A stretch of DNA of 64,000 bases, taken from positions 20,583 through 84,582 of the forward strand of contig JASMTS010000014.1 in NCBI GenBank assembly GCA_041694155.1, read 5' to 3'. This document shows positions 30,788 through 49,325 of the stretch, in pieces (the stretch's first letter is position 1; each line of letters opens with the position of its first letter). The DNA comes from Candidatus Altimarinota bacterium (GTDB lineage: Bacteria; Patescibacteriota; Gracilibacteria; BD1-5; UBA6164). The position numbers and the translations under genes were made by a program. The notes under the pieces were generated by a model, which was given only the letters and a program-made list of their open reading frames with translations, had not been told where the DNA came from and did not search any database.

Positions 30788-30865
30788 GGTGCCTGTAGTT
30801 TAGTTGGTTAGAACATCGGGTTGTGATTCCGAGGGTCGTGGGTTCGAGTCCCATCAGGCACCCCA
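30788..30865 (+). tRNA. tRNA-His (anticodon GTG) with encoded G-1 and CCA
   Basis: Cloverleaf: G-1, acceptor GTGCCTG/CAGGCAC, anticodon stem TCGGG/TCCGA with loop TTGTGAT, T arm GTGGG-TTCGAGT-CCCAT, discriminator C, then CCA. Confidence 0.9.
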
Positions 30866-33538: not shown

Positions 33539-34324
33539 ATGGCAATTACAGCTGCTCAAATAAAAGAATTAAGAGAAATTACAGGTATCGGTATGATGGA
33601 ATGTAAAAAAGCTCTTACTGAAACAGATGGTGATATGGAAAAAGCTATTGAAGAATTAAGAAAAAAAGGTTTAGCAAAAGCTGCTAAAAAATCTGATAGA
33701 GATACTTTTGAAGGTGGTATTAAAATACTTACTGAAGGTAATAAAGCTTATGTTGTATCTGTTTCTTGTGAAACTGATTTCTTAGCTAATTCTGATAAAT
33801 TTAAAGCTATGTTAGAAAAAGTAGCTGAATTTTTAAAAGAAAATGGTGCTGATTCAAAAGAAGCTGCTCAAGAATTCATCAATTCTAACTATGCATTAGA
33901 AATGGGTGAGAACTTACAAATATCTAACTACAAAATAGTAGAAGGTGATGTTGTAGCTGAATATGTTCACTCTAATGGTAAATTAGCTGCATTGGTAGTT
34001 GCTAAAGATGGAACTGATCAAGAAAAAGTTAGACAAGTTGCTATGCATGTAACTGCAAGTAATCCTGAATACTTATCTCCAGAAGAAATTTCTGATGAAG
34101 CATTAGAAAAAGAAAAATCTATTCAATTAGAAATGATGAAAAATGATCCAAAAATGGAAGGTAAACCAGAAGATGTATTGTTAAAAATCATCGAAGGTAA
34201 AATGGGTAAATTCAAATCTGAAATCTCATTAACTGAACAACCTTTTGTTATAGATCCAAATACTAAAGTAAAAGATTTTATCTGAGAAGGTAACTTACAA
34301 GCTTTTTATAGATTTTCTATATAA
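33539..34324 (+). CDS. tsf: translation elongation factor Ts
   Basis: 261 aa. Contains ITAAQIKELREITGIGMMECKKALTETDGDMEKAIEELRKKG (UBA-like N domain) and SCETDFLANSD. Extends one TGA past track ORF 33539-34285. Confidence 0.9.
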
Positions 34325-34363
34325 TAAAACACTCTCTCTTAATCAAACAAGAGAGAGAATTAT

Positions 34364-34438
34364 AGTCCCATAGTTAAACGGCTATAATTCAGGACTCCAA
34401 ATCCTGCGTTCTAGGTTCGATTCCTAGTGGGACTGCCA
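34364..34438 (+). tRNA. tRNA-Trp (anticodon CCA)
   Basis: Acceptor AGTCCCA/TGGGACT, anticodon stem CAGGA/TCCTG with loop CTCCAAA, T arm CTAGG-TTCGATT-CCTAG, discriminator G, encoded CCA. Confidence 0.9.
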
Positions 34439-34440
34439 TT
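34418..34440 (+). repeat. att-like direct repeat copy 1 (3' end of tRNA-Trp)
   Basis: CGATTCCTAGTGGGACTGCCATT, identical to 34593-34615. Confidence 0.85.
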
Positions 34441-34592
34441 TACAACAAAAAATACCCTAAGCGAAAGCGTGGGGTATTTTTAGTTGTAAAAGATAATTTG
34501 TACTAAGGAATCGAAAGGAGGGTATTTGCGAATGCAAATATTTAATTGCGATGAATAAGAGCAATTAAAACGGTGTCTGACCCGAAGGGCAA
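34441..34592 (+). other. GC-enriched structured spacer between the two tRNA 3'-end copies
   Basis: Long hairpin TTACAAC-AAAAAATACCC...GAAA tetraloop...GGGGTATTTTT-GTTGTAA. Three short hairpins follow (TATTTGC/GCAAATA, TTAATTGC/GCAATTAA, CCC-GAA-GGG), enclosed by GGAATCG/CGATTCC. No ORF. Confidence 0.3.
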
Positions 34593-34615
34593 CGATTCCT
34601 AGTGGGACTGCCATT
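34593..34615 (+). repeat. att-like direct repeat copy 2
   Basis: Exact 23-nt copy of the tRNA-Trp 3' end with no 5' tRNA half upstream. Confidence 0.85.
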
Positions 34616-34697
34616 AAAAAATAAAAAAATTTATTGCACTTTTAAATATTATTTTTATTACTTATAAATTACTATTATAGTTTTTTCATATTAATAA

Positions 34698-36488
34698 TTA
34701 ATCTAATTGTTCTTTTATTTTTTCATATATTTTATACATAGCTAAACTATCTTGCCCACAATATAGGAGTAAATTCTTAATTTGCTCTTCCTTTTGTTTT
34801 CATGTAATTTTTCATTCAAATATTTTATTTAATGTATTCATAGCAACAAGTCAATTTTTCACTCACATTCAATCATAACTCATTTCAGGCACCATAGCTG
34901 GTAAAACATATTTAATAGAATTAGCCCCTTTAAAATTTAATGAATAATAATATCATTTTGAGAATATATCCATTAAATCATAGGTGTTTTCATTAATCAT
35001 CTCAAATTTATCTCTCAAATTTTCAAATGTTTCAGCTATTTTTTTATTTCTTGTATTTTCAAAAGCTTTATACCAAACTATAAAAGTTTTATCAAAATCT
35101 TCTCAAATATCAGCTACAAATTCATCTAATAAATCTTTATAAGATCATGTTATAACCTTTTCACTTTCAAAATCTACTTTATTGCTATTATTTTCGATTT
35201 TAAGATGTTCTACATTTTTTTCTCAATCTCATACTAAAACTCATCAAAAGTGTTTTATATCTCAATTTTCATACACTTTATGAAGACTATATTGAACTAC
35301 TACTTGTTGATATGGCGAAGTATTATCTAAAAAAGGAATTGGGACACAAAGAGTTTCATAATCATAAAAACAAATCGGATATTTTATATCATCAAATTCA
35401 TTTATAATTGATTGAATATCAATTAGGTCTTTTCATTCTTTTTTTGCTTGTAAATAATTTATTATATATTGTCTTGCTTTTCAAATCACATTTCAAGCAT
35501 TATTAAATTTTTCATGTTCTTCAATACTCAAGTCATCTAATTTAGTTTTTCATTCATAATGTAATTCTTTGACTGCTTTGGGGGAACTTAATCATTTTCA
35601 ATAAATAGTTCAAAACTCTCTTTCTTCTCAAAAATATTCTAAATACTTACTTCATGAAAAATTATGTATTTTATTAAACTCTTCTTCATTCAAAATTAAT
35701 TCATTTCTTATTTGTTTTATAGTTTCTTTTATAACAAGAGAAGTTAATAAAAAATCTTTCCTAATAAATTCTTTGTCTGATTCTTCTCAAATTAATAAAA
35801 CTTTTGATTCTATATCTACTTGATCTAAAATAACTATTTTATATAAATCTATTTCTCAATTTTTTTTATAATTTCAATTCAGATAAGCATAATAAAAATT
35901 TTCTATTTCTCATAGTCAATTTTGAGCTAAAACTTTGTTTATGACATACTTTTGAAATGAAATATCTGATAAAAACTTATTTTCTAATTCTCATGAATTT
36001 TTATTTTTCACTTTTTGGTGAGCTTTTTCTTTTCTAACATGAGTTTTAGCTTTTACTTCTATTAAATCATAGTTTCAATTTCCATTTAGTTTTAAGTAAT
36101 CTCATCTTACAAAAAGATTATCTATTAAAAATCAAGGTTGGTAAATTAAAGCTTCTTTATTTTTAATAGCTTCTATTGTTCTTTTTAAATTATTATCTCT
36201 TTTTGTTTTATAATCATCAGCTATTAAAGTCATATCTTCATCTTCTTCATCAAGAGGATTTTTAGCTGTATTATCTTCAAAAACATCAAGTTTTTCAAAT
36301 CAATATTTTTTCAGAAAATAATCTCAAACTAAATCTTCAACTTTTTGTCAAAGCTCTATCAATTGTTCTCATTGTTCTTCATCTTCTAGTCCTCTTATTT
36401 TTTTATATACAGGCATATTATTTTGTTTCCACCAAGCAAGTTTTGGAAATTCTTTATAATCTACAAATAATGATTTTGTTATTAGCAT
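34698..36488 (-). CDS. DUF2779 domain protein (N-terminal RecB/Cas4-like PD-(D/E)xK region, C-terminal DnaQ-like region)
   Basis: 596 aa. GDYLKLNGNGNYDLIEVKAKT (D..ExK). Further on, ICFYDYETLCVPIPFLDNTSPYQQVVVQYSLH and C-terminal LLLYCGQDSLAMYKIY match the DUF2779 pattern. Confidence 0.65.
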
Positions 36489-36610
36489 AGTTTATAATAA
36501 AAAAAATATTAACATCACTATACACAAAATATATACAAAGTAAATTTTTATTTGGACTTTTAGTAGAAAATAAATATATTGGTATGTAAATATTTCCAAT
36601 TAAAAATTAT

Positions 36611-39600
36611 ATGGCTCAATTATTTAAGAAGAATATAGTAAAAGAAAAATTAAATACTTTTGAAATACCTAATTTAGAAGAAAAAATAGAAGTATTAAAA
36701 AAATGGGAAAAACTTCATAGAGAGGGGACATTAATAAGCAAAAAAGAAGAAGAGCTTGAATGACCTTTTTGAAGTGACTTTTTTGGTAAAATATTAGACT
36801 ATCATAGTTTTTGAGAAAATGAAATTTATAATAGGAAGTTTCAACCAAAAGTTCCAGAATGATGACAAAAAGCAGATATATGACTTTGATTTTTCTGAGA
36901 AAATATTGATATAATGAAAGTTGTAGTTGAATTAAAAGATGCTAAAACTTCACTTGATAAACCTCAACAAAGAGCCTGAAATCTTACACCTGTTCAACAA
37001 GCTTTTAAGTATAAGCCATATTTTAAAGATTGTGACTTTATTATTGTTTCAAATTTTAATGAAACAAGATTGTATATAGATAGTTATTATGACTACGAAG
37101 CTTGGACTTTATCAGATTTAATTAATCCATTTGATAATTATTTTAATTTTAGAAGATTTTATTATCTATTAAATAAACAAAATCTAATCATTAAAAAGTG
37201 AGAAAGTAATACAAAATCTTTGCTTTCTTATATAAGAATTCAAGAAAAAGAAATCACAAAACAATTCTATAAAGAATATACATTTTTAAGAAAAGAGCTT
37301 TTTAAAGATATAGTAACTAATAATCCTTGATTTAAAAAGACTGAACTTGATTTTTTATTAAATAAAACTCAAAAAATAATTGATAGAATTATTTTTATAC
37401 ATTTTTGTGAAGATTTATGACTTTTGCCACAAGATAAATTAAAAGAAGTTATTGAATATGGTGAAAAATCACTTGCCACTACTTGGGAAACATTATCTAA
37501 CTTTTTTAGAGCTGTTGATAAAGGTAGTGAAAAATTAGAAATTCCAGACTGATATAATTGAGGTCTTTTCCATGAAGATACAGAATTAAATAATCTAAAA
37601 GTTTGAGATAAAATCTGTAAGAAATTTATAGATATGTGAGAATATAACTTTGCTGATGATTTATCGGTAAATATTTTAGGTCATATTTTTGAACAATCTA
37701 TAAGTGATATAGAAGAATTAAAAGACAAAATCAATAAACAAGAAGATGCTACTTTATCAAAAAGAAAGAAAGATTGAGTTTTTTATACTCCTGAATATAT
37801 AGTTGATTATATAGTTAAAAATAGTGTTGGTAAAAAAATTGATGAATGGGAAGACGAATTGAAGCAAAAGCATAATCTAAAAGAAAATATTACAGACAAA
37901 AACTATAATAAAAGAGCTATTTTAGTATATGAAGAACTACAAAACAAAGTTCATAATATCAAAGTATTAGATCCTGCTTGTTGAAGTGGGGCTTTTCTGG
38001 TTAAAGTTTTTGATTTTTTACTTGATAAAAATAAGGAAATATCAAAAAAACTTGAAGATTTGTGAGTTAATCAAGGTTTATTTTCAAGTGAAAGTTATTT
38101 TAGAACAATACTTAAAAATAATATTTATTGAGTTGATTTAAATGAAGAAAGTGTTGAGATAACTAAACTATCTCTTTGGTTAAAAACAGCCCAAAAAGGT
38201 AAAAAATTGGCTAATCTTGATAGTAATATTAAGTGTGGTAATTCTCTTATTGATGATAAAGAAATTGCATGAGAAAAAGCTTTTTTTTGGGAAACTGAAT
38301 TCAAAGAAATTTTTGATAATGGTTGATTTGATGTAGTTGTAGGTAATCCTCCTTATGTTTCTACAAAACAAATTAATAAAATTGATAGAGATTTCTTTTG
38401 GAACACATATTGAGATATACTAATTTGAGAAATGGACTTATATCAAATTTTTATTTATATTTCATTAAATAAATTATTAAATAAATCATGAAATTTAGGT
38501 TTTATAACACCTAATTCTTATTATACTAATAAAAGTTTTAGTAAGTTTAGAGATTATATATTTAAAAATACCTCAATTTATCAAATTATAGATTTTCCAT
38601 ATAGATTTTTCCCATTTGATGAAGTTAATACTGAAACATCTATAATAACATTAAAGAATAGTTATAATTATAATAATTTTATTAATTTAGGAAAAATTGA
38701 TAAAGAAAAAATAAATTATTCAAGTAATTTAGATTTATCTACATATTTTAATAATTCATTTAAGCAAAATGATTTTTTCTCTATATATAAAGAAAAAATA
38801 GTAATTGATGCAAATAGTATTCTTGAAAAGTTAATTAATATAAAAGATGTTTTTTGAGGTCATTTAGACTTACATAAATGATGGATGAGTATTCCTAATT
38901 CAACTGAAATTTCATGAGAAAAATATGATAAATGAACTTTTTCTTATGAAGAAATTAATAATTCAGAAATATTAAAAAATAATACTATAAAATATTTAGA
39001 ATGAAGAGATATACATAGGTATTATATAGATAATACTTCTAAGTATGTAAATATATCAAATATTGATGAAAAAACAAAAAAATGGCATATTAGTGAAAAA
39101 ATTGCATTACAAAGAATTGTATGACAAAATAAAAGTAAAATATTTGCAACTTATGTATGAAGTGAATATATAATTTTTCCTAATGCAAATTTAGTTAATA
39201 TAAAAGATAATAAAAATAATATATATTATTTTTTATGAATTTTAAATTCTAAGCTAATAAATTATTTTTATTGAAAATACTATTGAGAAAGTAATACAAA
39301 TATAACAAAAGATGCATTTGAATTAATACCATTTGCATGATTTAAAAATGAAGAAGAAATTATAAACAATGTAATATCAATAATTGATAAAAACAAAAAA
39401 CTTCAGAAAAAAGTTAATAAATTTATCAAAAGATTAAAGAGTAGTTTTGAAATAGAAAAATTATCTAAAAAATTAGAAGCTTTTTATGATTTAGAGTTTA
39501 GTGATTTTGTAAAAGAATTGAAGAAAAAGAAAGTAGAATTGAGCCTTAAAGACCAAGATGAATGGGAAGAATATTTTGATAGTTATAAAAAAGAAATTTT

Positions 39601-39706
39601 AGAATTGAAAAGTGAAATTGATAATTGTGATAAAGAAATTGATGAAATGGTTTTTGAGTTGTATGGATTGAGTAAAGAAGAAAGGGGAGTTGTTTTAAAT
39701 AGTTAG
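36611..39706 (+). CDS. type IIL/IIG restriction-modification enzyme (MmeI-like nuclease, N6-adenine methyltransferase and specificity domain in one polypeptide)
   Basis: 1031 aa. N-terminal ADIGLGFF...VVVELKDAK...IIVSNFNETRLY (D-ExK, MmeI-like). SAM motif VLDPACGSGAFL and catalytic VVGNPPYV (NPPY at 38345-38356). Long C-terminal target-recognition region. In frame with track ORF 39518-39706. Confidence 0.8.
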
Positions 39707-39724
39707 ATTTTAAATTTTTAGATT

Positions 39725-40018
39725 ATGGAGAAAGTAAAAGAAGATATTTTATTTCATGAATCATGACTTAATAAATGATTTTATACAAACTTTAATCAAT
39801 ATACTTCAAATATAAATAATTTCAGATGAAGTTTAATTGTTTTTTCTTGATGATTAATTACTTTTTTAATTTTTTTCACAAAAGATATACAAAATCAGTG
39901 AATATTAGAATTTTGTATTATTTTTTCTCTTATTATTGTTTTTAATTTATCTGTATTAATTTGAGTTGTTTTTCCTATACTTCATTTGAAAATTAACTTA
40001 TATAGAAATTATTTATAG
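39725..40018 (+). CDS. small membrane protein, hypothetical
   Basis: 97 aa with two predicted TM helices. Starts 19 nt after the R-M gene. Confidence 0.35.
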
Positions 40019-40057
40019 ATTGATTTTATTTCTATAGTAAAAAAATGTAAAATCAAA

Positions 40058-40252
40058 ATGAACTTTAATCCTGAAAAATTTAATAAAATTGATATAGATA
40101 AATATAAAAAAGAAACATTAAATTTTCAATATAAAAATAATAATTTACCTTGGTACTTTAATGCCTTTATTATATTAGAGAATACTTTTATTATTATATT
40201 TATAGTATTTCTAATAATACTTTTAATTAGTTTATCAATTTATTATATATAA
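40058..40252 (+). CDS. small membrane protein, hypothetical
   Basis: Track ORF of 64 aa with a C-terminal TM helix FIIIFIVFLIILLISLSIYYI. Confidence 0.35.
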   Translation: MNFNPEKFNKIDIDKYKKETLNFQYKNNNLPWYFNAFIILENTFIIIFIVFLIILLISLSIYYI

Positions 40253-40361
40253 ATATATTTTAATAATATCAATATTAAATCAACTCAATCCAAGGGAATA
40301 AGCTTTTTTATAAATATAATAAGCGATGTAATAGATAATTTATAATTCACAAAATCAGATT

Positions 40362-40790
40362 ATGTTTAATTTTTTTACAAGTAAAAAAGATAATGAAAAA
40401 CAAAAAATAGAATATTTTGAAAATGTTAAAAGTGCTTCTTTATTTTTGGATAAATCTATTTTAACTATATCAAGTGCTTTTCTATGATTTTTATTATCTC
40501 AGTTTGAAAATTTATATGAAATAAAATCACAATTGTTAAACATTATATATTTACATATATCAATTATATCAATTTGATTTACAATATTTTTTGTCTTAAT
40601 TTCATATATTTTAAGCATAAAGCAAGCGAAAATATGATATGATATTTTAGAAAAAAATATTCCTTATGATAAATGAATCATTACTTTTAACAATTATGAT
40701 TTATTTATCGACTTATTTAGAATAATTTATTTTGTTACTTTTATTATTCCTATAATTCTAACAGTTTTATTTTACATTAGTAATTTTTAA
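40362..40790 (+). CDS. membrane protein, hypothetical
   Basis: 142 aa with three hydrophobic segments. Codon-by-codon reading with TGA=Gly ends at TAA 40788-40790. Confidence 0.4.
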
Positions 40791-40949
40791 TATAAATGTC
40801 TGAACAAAAAAAAGAAAAAATTGATAAATCATCAAATAATAGACCTCCTAAAAAATAAAAAAGAACCTAAAGATAAATAATTACCTATAAATAACTATAT
40901 GATAGAGCTTGTTTTATAGTATGACATATTAGTAAATAACTTTAAAATA

Positions 40950-41747
40950 ATGGAATGACTTATCTCACCTAAATATTTAGTAAAACTTATCGATGAAATT
41001 AATGATGTAATTTGGAAAGAAATTTGATGATATAAAAAAGTATTGTTTTATATAAAAAGATGGCATGAAACTAATGAAGAATATAATATGAATTATTGGG
41101 AAAATTTCCCAATAAAATATCAAAATGATACAAATAATATTGACCTATTAGCTACTATAAATGAAATGCCTAATAATATTATATTGAAAATAGCCATTGA
41201 TTTATGAATTGAAACACCAGATTTTATACCATTAATACCTACTTTTAGGAATAATTTAAAAGATAGTTATAAAACATCTTTTCAATCATTTGAAAAAGCA
41301 TTTAAAGAAGTAGAAGATAATCCTGATATGGCTGTATGATTAGCTAATTCAACATTAGAAAGTATAATAAAACATATATTAAAAGATGAAAAAATATCTG
41401 CTAATTTAGATAAAAATAAAACATTATATAAATTAACTGAAGATATATTAAGAGAATTTTCAATGTTTCCTTCAAAAGAAGCTATGAATGAAATAAAAAC
41501 AATTTGAAGTTCTTTATTAAATGCTTCAAAACATATTGAAGAATTAAGAAGTAATAAAACTCTATCTCATTGAAAAATATTAGAAGATTATATAGTTAAT
41601 GATTCTTTATATGCTTATTTTATTATAAATGCTGTTTCGACTATATGAATATTTTTAATTAGTTTTTATAATAAAAAATACAAAAAAATAGAAAATAGTG
41701 ATAATAAAGAATTTGAAGAAATTTCAGTTGAAGACATACCTTTTTAA
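40950..41747 (+). CDS. abortive-infection C-terminal (Abi_C-like) domain protein with C-terminal TM helix
   Basis: 265 aa. NPDMAVGLANSTLESIIKHIL ... KHIEELRSNKTLSHGK resembles the Abi_C helical domain ending in the R-N-x-x-x-HG motif. The helix AYFIINAVSTIGIFLISFY follows. Confidence 0.45.
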
Positions 41748-41756
41748 TATAATTTT

Positions 41757-42422
41757 ATGATAGAAGAAAAAACATTTAGTGATATTAGAAGAAATTATAT
41801 ACTATCATCTGTGATATTTATTTTATTTCTTATTTATTGATGAAGAATAGAAATAAATAAAATTCTATTTTTTGATTTAAGTTGAGAATGGTATTATTTT
41901 TCTCCTTTTATAGATATATTTATATTGCTTTTAATTTTCTTTTTATATACATTTATTAGATATATAATTTATGCTAAATATGAAATTAAAGAGAAATGAT
42001 ATTATTTTAATAGACTATATAGATGAATAAAAAATACTAATATTGATGATTATTCTAAAAAAATATATATTAATGAAAATAAAAAAGAAATTATATTAAA
42101 TTGAATATCTATTAATAAACGGAGTGGTAAAAATGAATTAGAATTACAATTATCCTATAAAGATTGAAATATAAGTTGAACTAACATTAGTATAAAAAAA
42201 ATAAAACAATATTCTTTTAATAAAAATGAAATAACTTTTGAGTTCTTATGAAGTAAAGTTATTTTAAGAACAAAAGAATGAAAAAATAATTATTTTAAAA
42301 CAGACTATTCAAAGTTTGTCTTTGATTTGGATTATTCAAATTTTATTTGGCCATTATCATTAATTTTTATAATATATTTTATATTAATTGTTAAACTTAC
42401 ATACTTCCTATTTTATAACTAA
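41757..42422 (+). CDS. membrane protein, hypothetical
   Basis: 221 aa with N- and C-terminal TM helices flanking a soluble region of about 110 aa. Confidence 0.4.
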
Positions 42423-42556
42423 AAAGAAATCATTATTTAATAAACAATTTCTAATTAATTTGTGTATTTTATTAATAATTTAACTTTTCTTATATTGTAG
42501 CTAAAAAACTAACTGTATTTTTATTTAATACATTTAAAAGTTCTATGTTATTACCA

Positions 42557-42576
42557 GCAGTGCTGCCATTAAAAAA
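42557..42576 (+). repeat. degenerate third copy of the tRNA-Trp 3'-end att repeat
   Basis: CAGTGCTGCCATTAAAAAA compared with TAGTGGGACTGCCATTAAAAAA at 34599-34621. There is a 14-nt exact core CTGCCATTAAAAAA. Confidence 0.45.
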
Positions 42577-42579
42577 AAT

Positions 42580-42606
42580 ATCCCCCTATCATATAGATAG
42601 GGGGAT
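42580..42606 (-). terminator. GC-rich rho-independent terminator
   Basis: ATCCCCCTATC / GATAGGGGGAT 11-bp stem followed on the minus strand by a T run. Confidence 0.7.
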
Positions 42607-42609
42607 TTA

Positions 42610-42975
42610 TTAGTCAGTCAGCTCTAGGTAAGCTTTGAATTGCTTTCTGAGGACTGTTAGTTTGAAGGGCTTATCAACTACTATAGTTCTAACTATAGCA
42701 GTAAAGCCTACTTCATCATTTTTTGTGTCTTCTGTCTGGCCTTTTATTATTTCAAATGAGCCAAACCTTACCAAAAATTCAGTTATAGAGTCAAAAAGAC
42801 TCCCACTAAAATACAAGCGAAGGAGAACTGGTTTTTCTCCTTTGTCTATATAGTTATGCTTACTCTTTTTTTCTACTCTTTTTTTGAAGTTTTGGTAAAT
42901 CTTTTCTTTTTCTTCCTGGCTTAGTTCTTTTTTTGTACATAGCTGAGGAAGAGCCATATGAAGATGTTTTTTCAT
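42610..42975 (-). CDS. hypothetical protein, compositionally foreign
   Basis: Track ORF of 121 aa. No TGA codon (Gly codons are GGA, GGG and GGC x3). Uses C/G-ending codons that are rare elsewhere in the window. AGGAG lies 7 nt upstream of the ATG. Confidence 0.5.
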   Translation of the reverse strand: MKKHLHMALPQLCTKKELSQEEKEKIYQNFKKRVEKKSKHNYIDKGEKPVLLRLYFSGSLFDSITEFLVRFGSFEIIKGQTEDTKNDEVGFTAIVRTIVVDKPFKLTVLRKQFKAYLELTD

Positions 42976-43886: not shown

Positions 43887-43922
43887 AAAAATAACATAAG
43901 TTAAATCTTATGTTATTTTTTT
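43885..43922. terminator. bidirectional hairpin terminator
   Basis: AAAAAATAACATAAG / CTTATGTTATTTTTT stem. Confidence 0.6.
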
Positions 43923-45670
43923 GTATAGCATTTTTTTTCAGATTTTTTCAGATTTTTTGTTATTTGCTTTGTATTTTATTAATGGTTTTAGATCAATATC
44001 TTTTTTATCATATTTTTTATCTAGCATTTGTATAACATCTTGAAGTTTTTCAAATACTTTGTCTTTTCATATATTTTCTATAAATCACACACTATGCAAT
44101 TTATTTACAACTTTTACTCTAAGATTTGTATAGTATACTTTTATTCATTGTTTTCTAAGCTTGTAATCAAGATCTCTTAGTACTACATAACTAGATGAAT
44201 CAATATTTCACATCCACTCAAAATCAAAAATCACTATTTTTAAATCTGGCTTTTCTGATATGTAATCAAGTACTTTGTTTTCAAAATGTCATACATTTGC
44301 AAAAAATAAGTTACCATCTACTCTAAAAACAGAAATATATTTTGATTTTTTTATCTTGAAAAAATTCGCATCTCTAAATACTCAATTTTTGTACATTGAT
44401 ATTTCTATTACTTTTGGTTTCATTGACCTGTATATATGAAAAGCTAGGGATAATATTACTCAAGTAGCTATTCATACTTCTACATTTGGGCTACTTATCA
44501 TTGTAATTATAAAAGTTATTATAGCTACATAGGCATCTTTTTTTTGTACTTTCCATGCTTCTACTATAGGTTCTATTTTTATGAGGTCAGCTACAGCTAT
44601 TATAATAATAGCAGCTAATGTTGCTATCGGTAAGTGGTATAATAGGGAGTAAGATATATAAGAGTTATTGCTACTATTATTCATGTAACTATAGATGACA
44701 TAGATGACTTGGCTCATGCTCTAAGGTTTACTGCTGTTCTAGAAAAACTTCATGCTACTCAATATCAACCAAATAATGATGATCATATATTTGCCGTTGC
44801 TTGTCATAATAATTCTTTATTAGCTGATACCTTTTGTTTTGTTCTTATTGCTACTCATTTAGCTACAGCAATAGATTCTGTGAATCATATTAGTCATATT
44901 ATAAAAGAAAAAATTATTATTTTATAAGTGTGTTCTCAAAATAATATTTCTTTTGAAAAGCTCAAGTCTAATGATGGTAATCAGCTTGGTATAACTCATA
45001 CAACACTTCATCAATATTGAGACTCAAATCATATATTATATGATATAATAATCGATATTACCAATAATATAAGTACTCTTGGTAATTTTTGTAAGTATTT
45101 TTTTAATAATATTAAAATTATTATTCATACAAATCAAAACAAAAATGTTATCAAGTGCATCTCATCAAGTGACTTTACTATTATTTGCCATATTTGTTCA
45201 AAAATACTTATTCATTTTGATATTGAAAATCAAAATATTTTTTCTGCTTGTGATATTATTGTTATAAGTGCTATAGCATTTGTAAAACCTACTATTACAG
45301 GGTGTGATAAAAATTCTACTATTATTCAGAGTCTAAAAATTGATAATAAAAGATATGTTATTCACATAAAAAATGCCATCATCGAAGCATAAATTATGTA
45401 TTCTTGGGTACTTTGAAGTCATAGTGTTCATAAAGTTGCAGCAGTCATTATTGATACTATTGTTACCGGTCATGTAGACATTTGCTTGCTAGATCATATT
45501 AGTCATCATATTATAACTCATATAAAAGCAGTATAAAGTCATACATATATAGGCAATCATGCTAATCAAGCATATGCCATAGATTGAGGTATCATAACTA
45601 GAGCTACAGTTATCCCAGCTAGTAGATCAGCTCTAAAGAATGTTTTTATTTTGTTTTTTAATTTTGTCAT
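43908..45670 (-). pseudogene. SulP-family anion transporter with C-terminal STAS domain, interrupted by a frameshift near 44640-44650
   Basis: The N-terminal frame (start 45670; LLAGITVALVMIPQSMAYA ... RTAVNLRAGAKSS ... LTP) stops at TAG 44624-44626. The rest (HLPIATLAAIIIIAVADLI ... STAS domain) is in another frame, which is the frame of track ORF 44472-44717. The total span is not a multiple of 3. Confidence 0.65.
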
Positions 45671-47717: not shown

Positions 47718-49325
47718 TTATCTTTTTATTTGAAAAACAATATTATCTTTTATTTTTGATATTTTGTTTACAAAAAATGGTCTTATATCTATATTAACAT
47801 CACTTACTTTTCAAGTATTTATTATTATTTTTTCTGCTTCATCTCTATCCAATCATACTACAAGACTTTTTAGTTTGTCTACATAGTTGTTATTTTCAGA
47901 TATAAAGTTATGTATAAAAAATGCTTCTACCAGTGCAGTTGCTTTTACAGAATATGGTGATTTTGTAGTTTCTAATGGAGGTGATACTATTCTAAGTGAT
48001 CATTCATTTATTTCTTGTATTTCTTCAATATTTTCTAGTACTCATGTTCTCACTGTTTCTCTCAATTTTGTTAATAACATTTCTTTGTTATATGAATATG
48101 TTGTTATTTTTATAGATCATCATAACTTGAAGTTATCTATTTGTTTTCATAATTCCAACTCTTCTTCTCATACTACATTAAAATCTGAATACTGTGTTAT
48201 TCAGTCTATTGGAAATAATTCATATTCTACATTATTCCTTTCATTACTATCCTTTATATCTTGTTTTACTTGTTCATATGATTGATCTTCTAGTTTTCAT
48301 CTAAGTATAGTTTTTGCATTTTCTATATCTTGTTTTGTAAGTACTTTTTTGTAATTATCATTTCATCATTTAAATTCACTAACAGTTTCAGCATATACTT
48401 TGTCTTTTTCTTCTTCTAATCATGGTAAAAATAATCCTATACCTTTATCTATATTTCAGTTTGATCATATTATATTTCAATCATTGTCTCTCAATCTAGA
48501 GCTAGCATATGCTTCTATGCTTCATGGTATTATATTTCATGTTCAGCTAACGCTGCTTCAAGGTATAGTTATTGAACCTTCTAATAAATAAACTATTCAT
48601 GTTTCTGTTTGTAGTCTAGTATTTTCTATTAGGTCTATTTCATCTTTGAATTCATTGTATAATCTTACTTTTCATCTAGATGTAGATACACTTTCTTCTG
48701 ATACTCCTGATGTTCAAAAGTTTGAATCTATAAATATCTCTTTTGTTATTTTCTTTAGTCTTATAGTTCTATCATCTAATATTAAGCTATCATTTTGTGA
48801 TTCTACAAAGTTAAAATTTTTTCATTTTGTTTTTACTTCTATTTTTGGTGTTATTTCTATGTATGTTTTATTTACTGCAAAATAAAAAACAAACATAAGT
48901 AAAAATAATGCTATAAATAAAAAGCTTATAAAATATCATATTTTAGATTTTCAGTATCTCTCTTTATATCTTGATATTATAGTATCATTATTTTTTTGTA
49001 AAAATATATCTTTTATTTCTCTAAAATATCACTTAAAAGTATATAAAAAGTATTCAAAAAAACTATAATTATATTCTATCAAATCAGGATTATCTGTTAT
49101 AGAATACTTTATTCATAGCTTTTTTCATATTTTTTTTGCAGTTTTATCATTAGTAATTATTACTAAATCTTTTTTTCAAGCTTTTGTTTTTAGTATTCTA
49201 AGAGATGTGTAATTATGTAGTACTGGATGTCAAAAAGGGAACTCCAGTATTATTTCCTTATCCCTAGAGTTTTTTATTTTTATAATTATATCTACTATAG
49301 AGTCATTTTTGTGAATTTTTATCAT
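47718..49325 (-). CDS. single-pass membrane protein, hypothetical (large extracytoplasmic domain)
   Basis: 535 aa on the minus strand with TGA=Gly. The TM segment ISFLFIALFLLMFVFYFAV follows a cytoplasmic N-domain of about 130 aa. The plus-strand track ORFs at 47887-48885 are antisense artefacts. Confidence 0.5.

Follow-up and report, generated by a model that had tools for sequence, protein, structure and literature searches.

Organization of the tRNA-Trp locus

The stretch of DNA analysed here, referred to as the window, comprises 64,000 nt, and all coordinates count from its first letter; L-numbers (L005, L020, etc.) designate the related loci and contigs with which it was compared. The tRNA-Trp gene follows tsf, an order that is kept in about 60 Gracilibacteria loci, and is succeeded by a terminator-like linker, a small structured module, an island of about 7.9 kb and a conserved gene for a 121-aa protein (Table 1). 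Further to the right, the flank continues with CYTH, SulP and DEAD helicase genes and a gene at 47718-49325.

Table 1. Features of the tRNA-Trp locus in the window, with the evidence for each.
Feature	Position	Strand	Evidence
tRNA-Trp, anticodon CCA, CCA encoded	34364..34438	+	ARAGORN; Rfam tRNA 61.3 bits
23-mer copy 1 (tRNA positions 56-76 plus TT)	34418..34440	+	exact repeat, 0 expected by chance
Linker between tRNA and module, terminator-like hairpin and U-run	34439..34490	+	fold; spacer alignment
Core of tRNA-linked four-way-junction module	34506..34602	+	covariance model R1: 100.1 bits, E 7e-22
P1 5′ strand of module	ends 34513; pairing here extends 5′ to ~34498	+
Hairpin 1 of module	34523-34540	+
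Hairpin 2 of module, invariant loop GAUGAAUAAGA	34542-34568	+
Hairpin 3 of module	34578-34591	+
P1 3′ strand of module	starts 34593	+
23-mer copy 2 (P1 3′ strand and single-stranded module tail; tRNA positions 56-76 plus TT)	34593..34615	+
Lineage-specific island, ~7.9 kb, GC 0.202	34616..42562	.	no homology to L005, L017, L010, L011 between 34452 and 42568-42571
DUF2779 protein, 596 aa, 35 in-frame TGA	34698..36488	-	Pfam PF11074, E 1e-27
Type IIG (MmeI/Eco57I-like) restriction-modification enzyme, 1031 aa	36611..39706	+	Pfam Eco57I, MmeI_Mtase, N6_Mtase, TaqI_C; PADLOC REase_MTase_IIG E 7e-113
Three small predicted membrane proteins, GC 0.13-0.17	39725-40018, 40058-40252, 40362-40790	+	code 25 ORFs
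Abi_C / AbiJ-like C-terminal domain protein, 265 aa	40950..41747	+	Pfam PF14355 E 1e-8; PADLOC AbiJ E 2e-7
Predicted membrane protein, 221 aa	41757..42422	+	ORF
Third copy, candidate attR, 21/27 match to copy 2 plus flank	42550..42576	+	resembles attR of L020 element
Terminator hairpin of convergent gene; first right-side feature conserved with relatives	42580..42607	.	alignment with L005, L010, L011
Conserved 121-aa protein, first syntenic gene of right flank	42610..42975	-

The 23-mer CGATTCCTAGTGGGACTGCCATT, which begins in the T-loop of the tRNA, occurs exactly twice in the window, and shuffled sequences are expected to contain it not even once when three mismatches are allowed. The exact repeat of the tRNA-Trp 3′ end described in the first-pass annotation is real, and ARAGORN and Rfam agree with its observation that no tRNA 5′ half lies upstream of copy 2. 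Duplicated tRNA 3′ ends are usually read as scars of integration, and the T-loop represents the classic crossover position for tRNA-integrating elements. The linker that separates the tRNA from the module has homologues in the corresponding linkers of L011, L013, L021 and L028, where a module likewise follows tRNA-Trp, and in the L005 trailer. The flank 3′ of copy 2, for its part, is similar to the tRNA-Trp trailers of L005 and L017, which represent the ancestral form, and the ancestral trailer sequence CTGCCATTAAAAAA is retained at copy 2 and absent at the real tRNA end. Ancestral trailer may continue beyond copy 2 to its right, which would shift the left boundary of the island.

A structured element at the second copy of the repeat

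The second copy of the repeat is the 3′ end of an intact member of a conserved family of structured elements (core at 34506-34602), and not of a decayed island. The whole module of the window spans approximately 34498-34615 in the same orientation as the tRNA, with a core of about 100 nt. It folds into a cloverleaf-like four-way junction, in which a 5′ segment of 7-11 nt pairs with the nucleotides corresponding to tRNA positions 56-62(65) in the module's own 3′ end, leaving a tail of 14 nt that repeats the acceptor 3′ strand and CCA. In the window, CTAAGGAATCG pairs with CGATTCCTAG, the 3′ end is identical to positions 56-76 of the upstream tRNA at 21 of 21 positions, and the match to the covariance model begins 67 nt past the tRNA end. 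The fold of this copy has a z-score of -6.9. As model R1 was built from 12 sequences including the window's own, the 100.1 bits scored here are partly the result of construction; independent members (L056, L008, L010 and L046) score 92-100 bits, and full-length matches were obtained in the window and at more than 30 places elsewhere. In a hand-made alignment, 96% of the cells are paired and 12 of the 24 pairs are compensatory, and in a wider alignment these values are 95.5% and 23 of 24, while a slid structure leaves only 32-52% paired.

Searches of Rfam 15 returned no relevant match at E values up to 10 for 34200-34800, at the gathering thresholds for the whole window, or at E values up to 1 for four other module loci, and ARAGORN makes no tRNA or tmRNA call in the module stretch. 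Likewise, no matching description was found in the open-access literature, including a search for the loop sequence, or in the 224-motif paper. With no family in Rfam 15 and no matching literature, this compact structured element behind the tRNA genes of many candidate-phyla-radiation (CPR) bacteria appears to be previously undescribed. A search for the 15-mer GCGATGAATAAGAGC in viral contigs gave 29 matches, all in unrelated sequence lacking the hairpin stem, which are attributed to chance.

Association of the module with tRNA genes

In Gracilibacteria and other CPR contigs, the module core follows tRNA genes with at least 12 different specificities, which comprise, besides Trp, tRNA-His, Tyr, Ser, Ala, Gly, Gln, Arg, Val, Lys, Met and Leu. 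A typical member lies 51-69 nt downstream of the tRNA; its first segment is complementary to positions 56-62 of this tRNA and its last one repeats positions 56-76, so that both tRNA-matching segments track whichever tRNA precedes them. The P1 5′ strand varies with the T-loop (GGAATCG, GGATTCG, GGAGTCG, GGACTTG, GGAGAGTCG and GGGGGATTTG), and many tRNAs have CGAAUCC in common at positions 56-62. The 3′ 21-mer copy is also present downstream of tRNA-Trp in L011, L013, L021, L028, L033, L046 and L050, and at these seven loci it fits the tRNA of its own species despite differing acceptor stems. In L130 and L135, where the tRNA genes lack CCA, the module copies lack it as well, indicating that the copy mirrors the gene and not the mature tRNA. 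In the youngest-looking copies, the duplication spans from C56 to just beyond the tRNA terminator, reaching 76 bp in L114, about 62 bp in L028 and 40 bp in L046.

The distribution of the module is patchy, as it is present at about 10 of 61 Trp loci and about 10 of 61 His loci, and most of the closest relatives are devoid of it; of L010 and L013, one has the unit and the other precisely lacks it. Tandem copies exist in L048, shortened ones in L190 and L033, and decayed ones in L011 and L020. Modules also sit within tRNA and rRNA operons and in some cargo-free tRNA arrays, and some are squeezed between two tRNA genes. At the loci examined, their neighbours are housekeeping genes or other tRNAs, with no TnpB, Cas12, IscB, nuclease or transposase gene.

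These observations bear directly on the proposal that two successive integrase-mediated events struck the tRNA-Trp 3′ end, giving the order attL, 150-bp remnant, att, 8-kb island and attR. The proposal accounts for an exact 23-nt repeat that begins in the T-loop, and recombinase elements do use tRNA-Trp in relatives. However, the 152 bp between the two copies, which the first-pass annotation had taken for a remnant of an earlier integration, hold a full-length, high-scoring member of a family that recurs in many genomes behind all these tRNA types, and independent decay events would not repeatedly end in one and the same covarying core of 100 nt. Moreover, in L020 the module lies outside a bona fide recombinase-bearing element, beyond its attR. 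Two such integrations are, in our assessment, highly improbable.

Content and right junction of the island

The island contains accessory and defence genes, as initially annotated and now established with Pfam and PADLOC, together with four predicted membrane proteins (the three small ones and that of 221 aa) for which neither database yields a family match. Its GC content is 0.202, falling to 0.173 in the distal part, versus 0.274 and 0.266 in the flanks. TGA is found in frame throughout the island genes, with the exception of a 64-codon gene, which fits a donor with the same genetic code. The reported lack of a recombinase also holds and extends to fragments of one, both by Pfam analysis of all island ORFs and by tblastn of the L020 serine recombinase against the window (best E 0.07).

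At the right end of the island a degenerate third copy of the repeat had been proposed, a claim that survives in part. The exact 14-mer CTGCCATTAAAAAA at 34608 recurs at 42563-42576 and, with the flank included, the similarity to copy 2 amounts to an ungapped match of 21/27; the best value among 600 simulated 10-kb sequences was 19, the significance being computed with fixed reference words. In addition, the 8-mer CTGCCATT has only three occurrences in the 64-kb window, all of them within the three copies. The tRNA copy proper, on the other hand, does not exceed chance, since the match to the tRNA end alone is 13/21 (P = 0.375). Taken alone, the 8-mer has P = 0.037 per 10 kb, and the A-rich flank gives chance 14-mers with P = 0.18; the A-run, which makes up half of the 14-mer, also serves as the U-tract of the terminator of the convergent 121-aa gene. 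The window junction (...CAGTGCTGCCATTAAAAAA) has the same form as the attR of the L020 element (...GGTAGCCTGCCATTAAAAAC).

Comparison with related loci and origin of the island

Synteny with the relatives breaks and resumes at the limits given in Table 1. L005, L017, L010 and L011 do not carry the 8 kb and have other cargo between tRNA-Trp and the same 121-aa gene, which in L010 consists of a VanZ gene alone. That the closest relatives lack the island and have the site differently filled supports the reading of inserted DNA. The opposite notion of ancestral genes at this place nevertheless has some basis, as homologous DUF2779 and restriction-modification genes occupy the same locus in L065, L013 and L025. 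In L065, the DUF2779 homologue is 72% identical and adjoins a restriction-modification gene; the restriction-modification DNA of L013 and L065 is about 76-78% identical to that of the window, similar to tsf; and the restriction-modification protein is 73% identical to that of L065, versus 67% for ribosomal protein S2, a difference that hints at a later exchange. Exact-protein look-ups for strain variants retrieved solely contigs that have the same island or end at the tRNA. Of 61 related loci, 9 have a large serine recombinase, whole or as a fragment, directly at the 3′ end of tRNA-Trp; in 8 of the 9 the match ends at the same position inside the tRNA, and L020 provides the one complete recombinase-bearing element seen.

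In our judgement, the locus probably combines two things side by side, a structured tRNA-linked module and a defence-gene island that entered at the tRNA-like end of this module. The 7.9 kb constitute a defence-gene island in a hotspot between tRNA-Trp and the conserved 121-aa gene. As large-serine-recombinase elements are found at the same tRNA end in relatives, one of them resembling it in the right junction, the island probably represents a remnant that has no recombinase and whose point of entry was the tRNA-like end of the module. Entry could plausibly have taken place by site-specific recombination into copy 2, with an enzyme that would probably have been a large serine recombinase of the family using this tRNA end in relatives, and whose gene would have been lost later. 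As a separate observation, the homologous DUF2779 and restriction-modification genes of L065 and L013 diverge from those of the window about as much as housekeeping genes do, which counts against this reading of the island.

An alternative that we regard as rather unlikely is that no site-specific insertion occurred, the locus being an old variable interval shaped by gene loss and homologous replacement between conserved flanks, with the third copy as a chance 8-mer beside a terminator A-run. The different genes found in every relative, the coincidence of the right breakpoint with the end of the last conserved transcription unit, the tsf-like identity of the restriction-modification DNA, the weak P values of the tRNA match and the 8-mer, and the lack of a recombinase in the window are all in line with this possibility. 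It is opposed by the 27-mer match including the flank, by the fact that CTGCCATT is otherwise missing from the 64 kb, by a junction shaped like the proven attR at the same locus in L020, and by a restriction-modification protein closer to that of L065 than S2 is.

The island is close to a well-known class of elements. Genomic islands and prophages at tRNA 3′ ends carry direct repeats at attL and attR, and recombinase-less remnants and cis-mobilisable elements are included among them. The island resembles them in its position directly after a tRNA, the repeat starting in the T-loop, the accessory and defence cargo, the lower GC content, its absence in relatives and the use of the same tRNA end by large serine recombinases in related genomes. 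It differs in that the window has no recombinase, that the right repeat is just 14 bp long and that the left "att" is the tail of a separate structured element.

Possible nature and propagation of the module

The module is presumably an RNA rather than single-stranded DNA, judging by its GNRA-like loops, tandem G-A pairs, co-orientation with the tRNA and operon position only; a strand test gave 15 G-U pairs versus 9 A-C pairs and was not decisive. It would be transcribed together with the tRNA and, instead of being an integration scar, would act as an RNA element that is non-autonomous, guided by the tRNA and either mobile or retained. New copies would form when pairing between its 5′ segment and the conserved T-loop brings the core to C56; joined there, the core would capture the 3′ part of the tRNA, although the mechanism of this capture is speculative. 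On the other hand, the Trp-linked modules of different species look orthologous, so that long vertical retention, with loss by recombination between the repeats, seems at least as favoured as mobility.

In the strongest version of mobility, which we consider improbable, the module would be a protein-less self-propagating RNA. Its 5′ segment would pair with the T-loop of the pre-tRNA, with the core 3′ end abutting C56; the 3′ part of the tRNA would be joined by trans-esterification or ligation, and the chimera would be copied into DNA behind the tRNA gene. The shared CGAAUCC would then let the element hop between tRNA genes, gaining a matching tail automatically, and as a side effect it would provide spare tRNA-like attachment sites, where recombinase-borne defence islands could insert and leave the tRNA unbroken.

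A different explanation, which we regard as rather unlikely, is that the module is a host non-coding RNA gene tied to its tRNA, either as a processing or quality-control partner or as a decoy for tRNA-3′-end enzymes or recombinases, being inherited vertically with the identity of the repeat under selection. The orthology of Trp- and His-linked modules across species, the 3′ copies that track tRNA substitutions (L013 vs L028 and L046), the location in tRNA operons and, if the island entered at copy 2, the sparing of the real tRNA would agree with such a role. The patchy spread, the tandem, shortened and decayed copies and the fresh 76-bp duplication in L114 speak against it, and for these same reasons a selfish or dispensable element fits better.

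Several known systems share features with the module. On one hand, guide RNAs in which a scaffold precedes a 3′ segment matching the target include TnpB omega-RNA, Cas12 crRNA and the homing crRNAs by which type V-K CRISPR-associated transposons find tRNA genes. The module may be likened to them, as its structured scaffold precedes a stretch of about 21 nt that is identical to a DNA target at a near-fixed distance, the target in the tRNA gene being preceded by GTT; however, no effector gene exists at the loci examined, the first 7-11 nt of the "guide" are paired to the scaffold, and modules stand alone between tRNA genes. On the other hand, tRNA-like RNAs (the tRNA-like domain of tmRNA, YrlA and mascRNA) have in common with it the cloverleaf, a 7-bp closing stem, three hairpins, the probable co-transcription with tRNAs and an end made of acceptor strand and CCA. 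Unlike them, the module is recognized by neither ARAGORN nor Rfam, builds its closing stem from T-loop and T-stem nucleotides and leaves the acceptor strand unpaired. In addition, the module resembles MITEs and RNA-guided insertion of the group I/II intron type in its small size, non-coding nature, short inverted repeat ends (P1) and flanking direct duplication, as well as in presence-absence polymorphism, tandem copies and the proposed choice of target by base pairing. It departs from these in a duplication of 23-76 bp that has its left end fixed at C56 and closes on the right where the tRNA transcription unit stops, in an inverted repeat that consists of the target sequence and varies with the tRNA, and in matching no ribozyme family.

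Other candidates were discarded. A tmRNA, a split or permuted tRNA or a T-loop intron does not fit, since no T-arm 5′ strand precedes copy 2, ARAGORN makes no call and copy 1 already belongs to a complete tRNA. Copying of a mature tRNA end by reverse transcription, following a primer-binding-site logic, is contradicted by the missing CCA where the gene lacks it and by a duplication that reaches into the trailer. Core motifs of hammerhead or other small ribozymes were not found by eye, nor was there an Rfam match, and a Tn7-like end would require TGT...ACA termini and a transposase, both of which are lacking.

Implications

At this locus a duplicated tRNA 3′ end is part of an intact, covarying structured element, contrary to the routine reading as a scar, and these modules will be mislabelled by island finders based on partial tRNA repeats. 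Further outcomes of the analysis are a family of recombinases directed at tRNA-Trp in Gracilibacteria and a hotspot of defence genes in which the cargo is written in the altered code. An RNA-guided or self-inserting module would represent a new way to target the best-conserved sequence of tRNA genes; a module that acts as a cellular RNA would be a new tRNA partner in organisms with minimal genomes.

Repeats of the tRNA-Trp 3′ End

The duplication of the tRNA-Trp 3′ end is solid. As the first-pass annotation had noticed, the 23-mer CGATTCCTAGTGGGACTGCCATT is present exactly in copies 1 and 2 (see table), and no other site of the window matches it even when 3 mismatches are allowed; at the second copy neither ARAGORN nor Rfam calls a tRNA or a tRNA half. 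The degenerate third copy postulated at the far end of the island is upheld only in part. Together with its flank it aligns to copy 2 without gaps at 21 of 27 positions, a level reached in none of 600 simulated 10-kb sequences, and its exact portion, CTGCCATTAAAAAA, is a 14-bp repeat. Compared with the tRNA 21-mer alone, its best match is an ordinary 13/21 (P = 0.375), and its A-run belongs to the terminator of the convergent 121-aa gene; the third copy is therefore a short junction repeat and not a tRNA copy. CTGCCATT occurs three times in the 64 kb, each time within one of the three copies (P = 0.037 by simulation when taken alone).

Features of the tRNA-Trp locus and of the loci compared with it
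Feature	Sequence	Position	Strand	Remarks
tRNA-His	window	30789-30865		without module
tRNA-Trp	window	34364-34438		anticodon CCA
Copy 1	window	34418-34440
Module core	window	34506-34602	as tRNA-Trp	R1 match
Copy 2	window	34593-34615
Island	window	34616-42562
DUF2779/type IIG pair	window	34698-39706	divergent
Third copy	window	42550-42576
121-aa gene	window	42610-42975	minus
SulP, both ORFs	window	43908-45670	minus
SulP, transporter part	window	44624-45670	minus
SulP, STAS part	window	43908-44717	minus
DUF2779/type IIG pair	L065	14556-18330
98-aa MazG-like gene	L005	10799-11095
98-aa MazG-like gene	L065	10800-11096
Tandem modules	L048	6289-6601
Hairpin-2 motif	L123	5608 and 9656
Interval tRNA-Trp to flank	L005			three small ORFs, DEAD-like paralogue
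Interval tRNA-Trp to flank	L010			VanZ
Interval tRNA-Trp to flank	L017			DUF285 protein
Interval tRNA-Trp to flank	L065			GmrSD, 184-aa protein, DUF2779, restriction-modification enzyme
Interval tRNA-Trp to flank	L013			restriction-modification enzyme, four other genes

A Structured Module Behind tRNA Genes

The 152-bp spacer between copies 1 and 2 had been taken for the remnant of an integration event. This reading was abandoned, as the stretch holds a full match (100.1 bits) to R1, the covariance model of a module whose architecture recurs behind many tRNAs without any cargo. The spacer folds far better than its shuffles (z = -6.9), forming a terminator-like hairpin and then a multi-branched structure whose closing pairs join CTAAGGAATCG to the beginning of copy 2. 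Among 61 Gracilibacteria loci fetched around tsf for comparison (L numbers denote such loci and metagenome contigs), five have an exact repeat of the species' own tRNA-Trp 3′ 21-mer 140-190 bp downstream (L013, L021, L028, L046 and L050) and two carry slightly decayed copies (L011 and L033); acceptor stems vary among species, yet the copies follow each species' own tRNA-Trp. The spacers of these Trp-linked modules are homologous in alignment. The part of them that is best conserved is a hairpin whose loop reads GAUGAAUAAGA; it is also found in other loci behind tRNA-His, where the element terminates in a repeat of that tRNA's 3′ end. Scanning metagenomes with this hairpin revealed the same layout behind tRNA-Met, Tyr, Ala, Ser, Leu, Gly, Gln, Arg, Val and Lys, on CPR contigs mostly of low GC.

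A hand-curated alignment of 12 members, from which R1 was built, defines a four-way junction consisting of the closing stem P1 and hairpins 1, 2 and 3, with 96.5% of cells paired and compensatory pairs at 12/24. R1 matches ten Trp-linked loci, window included, nine His-linked ones (L008, L010, L011, L013, L014, L021, L046, L056 and L059) and roughly 25 strong members on metagenome contigs; it found no second module in the window. Across 30 distinct matches, in an alignment that was itself fitted to the model, the share of paired cells is 95.5% and compensatory change is seen at 23 of the 24 pairs; pairing falls to 32-52% when the structure is slid along this alignment. Hairpin 2 combines a stem, tandem G-A pairs, one covarying Watson-Crick pair (U-A or C-G) and a GAAUA pentaloop, an architecture that is sensible only on the tRNA strand; the strand test gave only a small excess of G-U over A-C pairs (15 versus 9). 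Covariance-model searches at the window locus and at four other module loci matched no Rfam family, and no published description of the module was found in the open-access literature searched.

Some further occurrences deserve mention. The tRNA-His of the window lacks a module, and about ten related species have a His-linked one upstream of the S1 gene, at the orthologous site. In L048, R1 finds two modules in tandem with a period of 171 bp, each terminating in CAAGTCCCTTCGAGCACCCCA; upstream of them is a degenerate tRNA-like 3′ end, with no intact tRNA called in the vicinity by ARAGORN. The hairpin-2 motif (stem, tandem G-A pairs and a GAAUA-type loop) is wider than the tRNA-linked module, since it also occurs, up to three in series, upstream of MobV-type relaxase genes (L123, L128, L167, L170 and L174). 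These contigs are small and resemble rolling-circle plasmids, and the motif adjoins a TAGCGA single-strand-origin-like hairpin. Where contig GC is 44-57%, this hairpin and its CGACGAATAGGAG variants form dispersed repeats on both strands, without tRNA linkage (L151, L159, L163, L171, L177 and L189; L115, L119, L129 and L173).

The Defence Island and Its Possible Entry

The window has a GC content of 23.6%, and its EF-Ts relatives come exclusively from Gracilibacteria or Patescibacteria MAGs. ORFs of at least 100 aa comprise 27,302 codons when TGA is sense versus 4,257 under the standard bacterial code; TGA is thus read as sense, as long ORFs appear only under that reading, and code 25 was used for all gene calls. 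The island genes contain many in-frame TGA codons, bearing out their use of the altered code. The accessory and defence cargo is likewise confirmed: DUF2779, a type IIG restriction-modification enzyme, an AbiJ-like protein, and three small and one further membrane protein. The island has a GC fraction of 0.202 versus 0.27 in each flank, and is present on near-identical contigs of two other assemblies.

Homology with L005 (EF-Ts 92% identical) stops at 34452 and restarts at 42571, continuing for 5.4 kb at 81% identity; with L010 and L011 it restarts at 42568, the terminator start of the 121-aa gene. Relatives share the gene order of the right flank, which runs from the 121-aa gene through CYTH, SulP and the DEAD helicase to the gene that follows. 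Comparison of related tRNA-Trp loci for an empty site gave a mixed answer: the island is lacking and the interval is differently filled, but DUF2779 and restriction-modification genes also occur in L065, and a restriction-modification enzyme in L013. The divergent DUF2779/type IIG pair is kept as a unit in L065, at 72-73% protein identity and in a different neighbourhood, and in L013 and L025 the restriction-modification gene occurs without its DUF2779 partner. L005 and L065 have a MazG-like gene between tsf and tRNA-Trp that is absent from the window. The split of SulP into two overlapping ORFs is probably not an assembly error, since L001 and L005 share it. Many related assemblies have contigs that stop at or just past tRNA-Trp (L008, L027, L040, L051, L053 and L204-L207), suggesting strain heterogeneity or repeats at a hotspot.

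Site-specific recombinases do occupy this site in relatives. L020 encodes a 559-aa large serine recombinase (Resolvase and Recombinase domains) overlapping the tRNA-Trp 3′ end, in an element of about 9 kb that terminates in ...GGTAGCCTGCCATTAAAAAC and is followed by the old trailer and then a Trp-linked module; the latter, lying beyond both, is older than the element and outside it. The family lies against the tRNA-Trp 3′ end on the minus strand, at about 10.8-12.6 kb in each locus, in 9 of the 61 Gracilibacteria loci: full-length homologues in L009, L020, L030, L059 and L062 (the last interrupted), and fragments in L012, L018, L036 (N-terminal only) and L043. The match ends at an identical position inside the tRNA in 8/9 loci, with C-terminal codons overlapping the tRNA, and tRNA-Trp trailers beginning TTTAAG, which match the reverse complement of these codons, occur in 15/61. 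In agreement with the earlier description of the island as recombinase-less, tblastn detected no trace of this recombinase in the window.

The right junction of the window, ...CAGTGCTGCCATTAAAAAA, matches the attR of L020 in form. CTGCCATTAAAAAA is present at copy 2, where the flanking sequence is similar to the ancestral trailer seen in L005 and L017, and is missing from the real tRNA-Trp end, whose present trailer is TTTACAAC. In the favoured reading, which has about an even chance, a recombinase-borne element would have inserted at the tRNA-like end of the module and would have lost its recombinase gene afterwards. This reading competes chiefly with the view that the interval is an old variable region, altered through loss and homologous replacement, and that the 8-mer beside the terminator is there by chance. 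The island is of an ordinary kind, a tRNA-linked defence island, here recombinase-less and with weak ends.

Relationship of the Module to Its tRNA

The unusual part of the locus is the module. The 5′ strand of P1 is complementary to tRNA positions 56-62, or to a longer stretch, and varies with the tRNA. Of 33 cases with an upstream tRNA called, all but two have an R1 match that starts 51-69 nt past it; the 3′ 21-mer is identical to that tRNA in 17 cases and has 1-3 differences in 8 more, and where the tRNA gene lacks an encoded CCA the module copy lacks it too. In the least diverged modules the direct duplication greatly exceeds 21 nt: L114 has 76 bp, L028 about 62 bp and L046 40 bp. Its first base is C56 in every case, and for L114 and L028 it stops just beyond the tRNA terminator. 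L013 differs from its relative L010 by the precise presence of the module unit, bounded by a 23-bp repeat; L005, the closest relative, retains only a remnant (linker and P1 5′ strand), and the module is absent from L017 and L205. Some modules are wedged between two tRNA genes at distances of 23-50 nt, and others belong to a tRNA array that precedes a 16S gene; such modules are free of cargo and almost certainly transcribed.

The module shares with classical attachment sites a repeat that begins in the T-loop, with guide RNAs the layout of a scaffold plus a 3′ match, and with tRNA-like RNAs a cloverleaf topology, but the tests for each of the three classes went against it. In the proposed mechanism, the core would insert together with a duplication that begins at C56 and extends as far as the tRNA transcription unit does, and the 5′ segment of the module would recognise the T-loop through base pairing. 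Such a mode of insertion suggests that the module may be a tRNA-guided, non-autonomous element.
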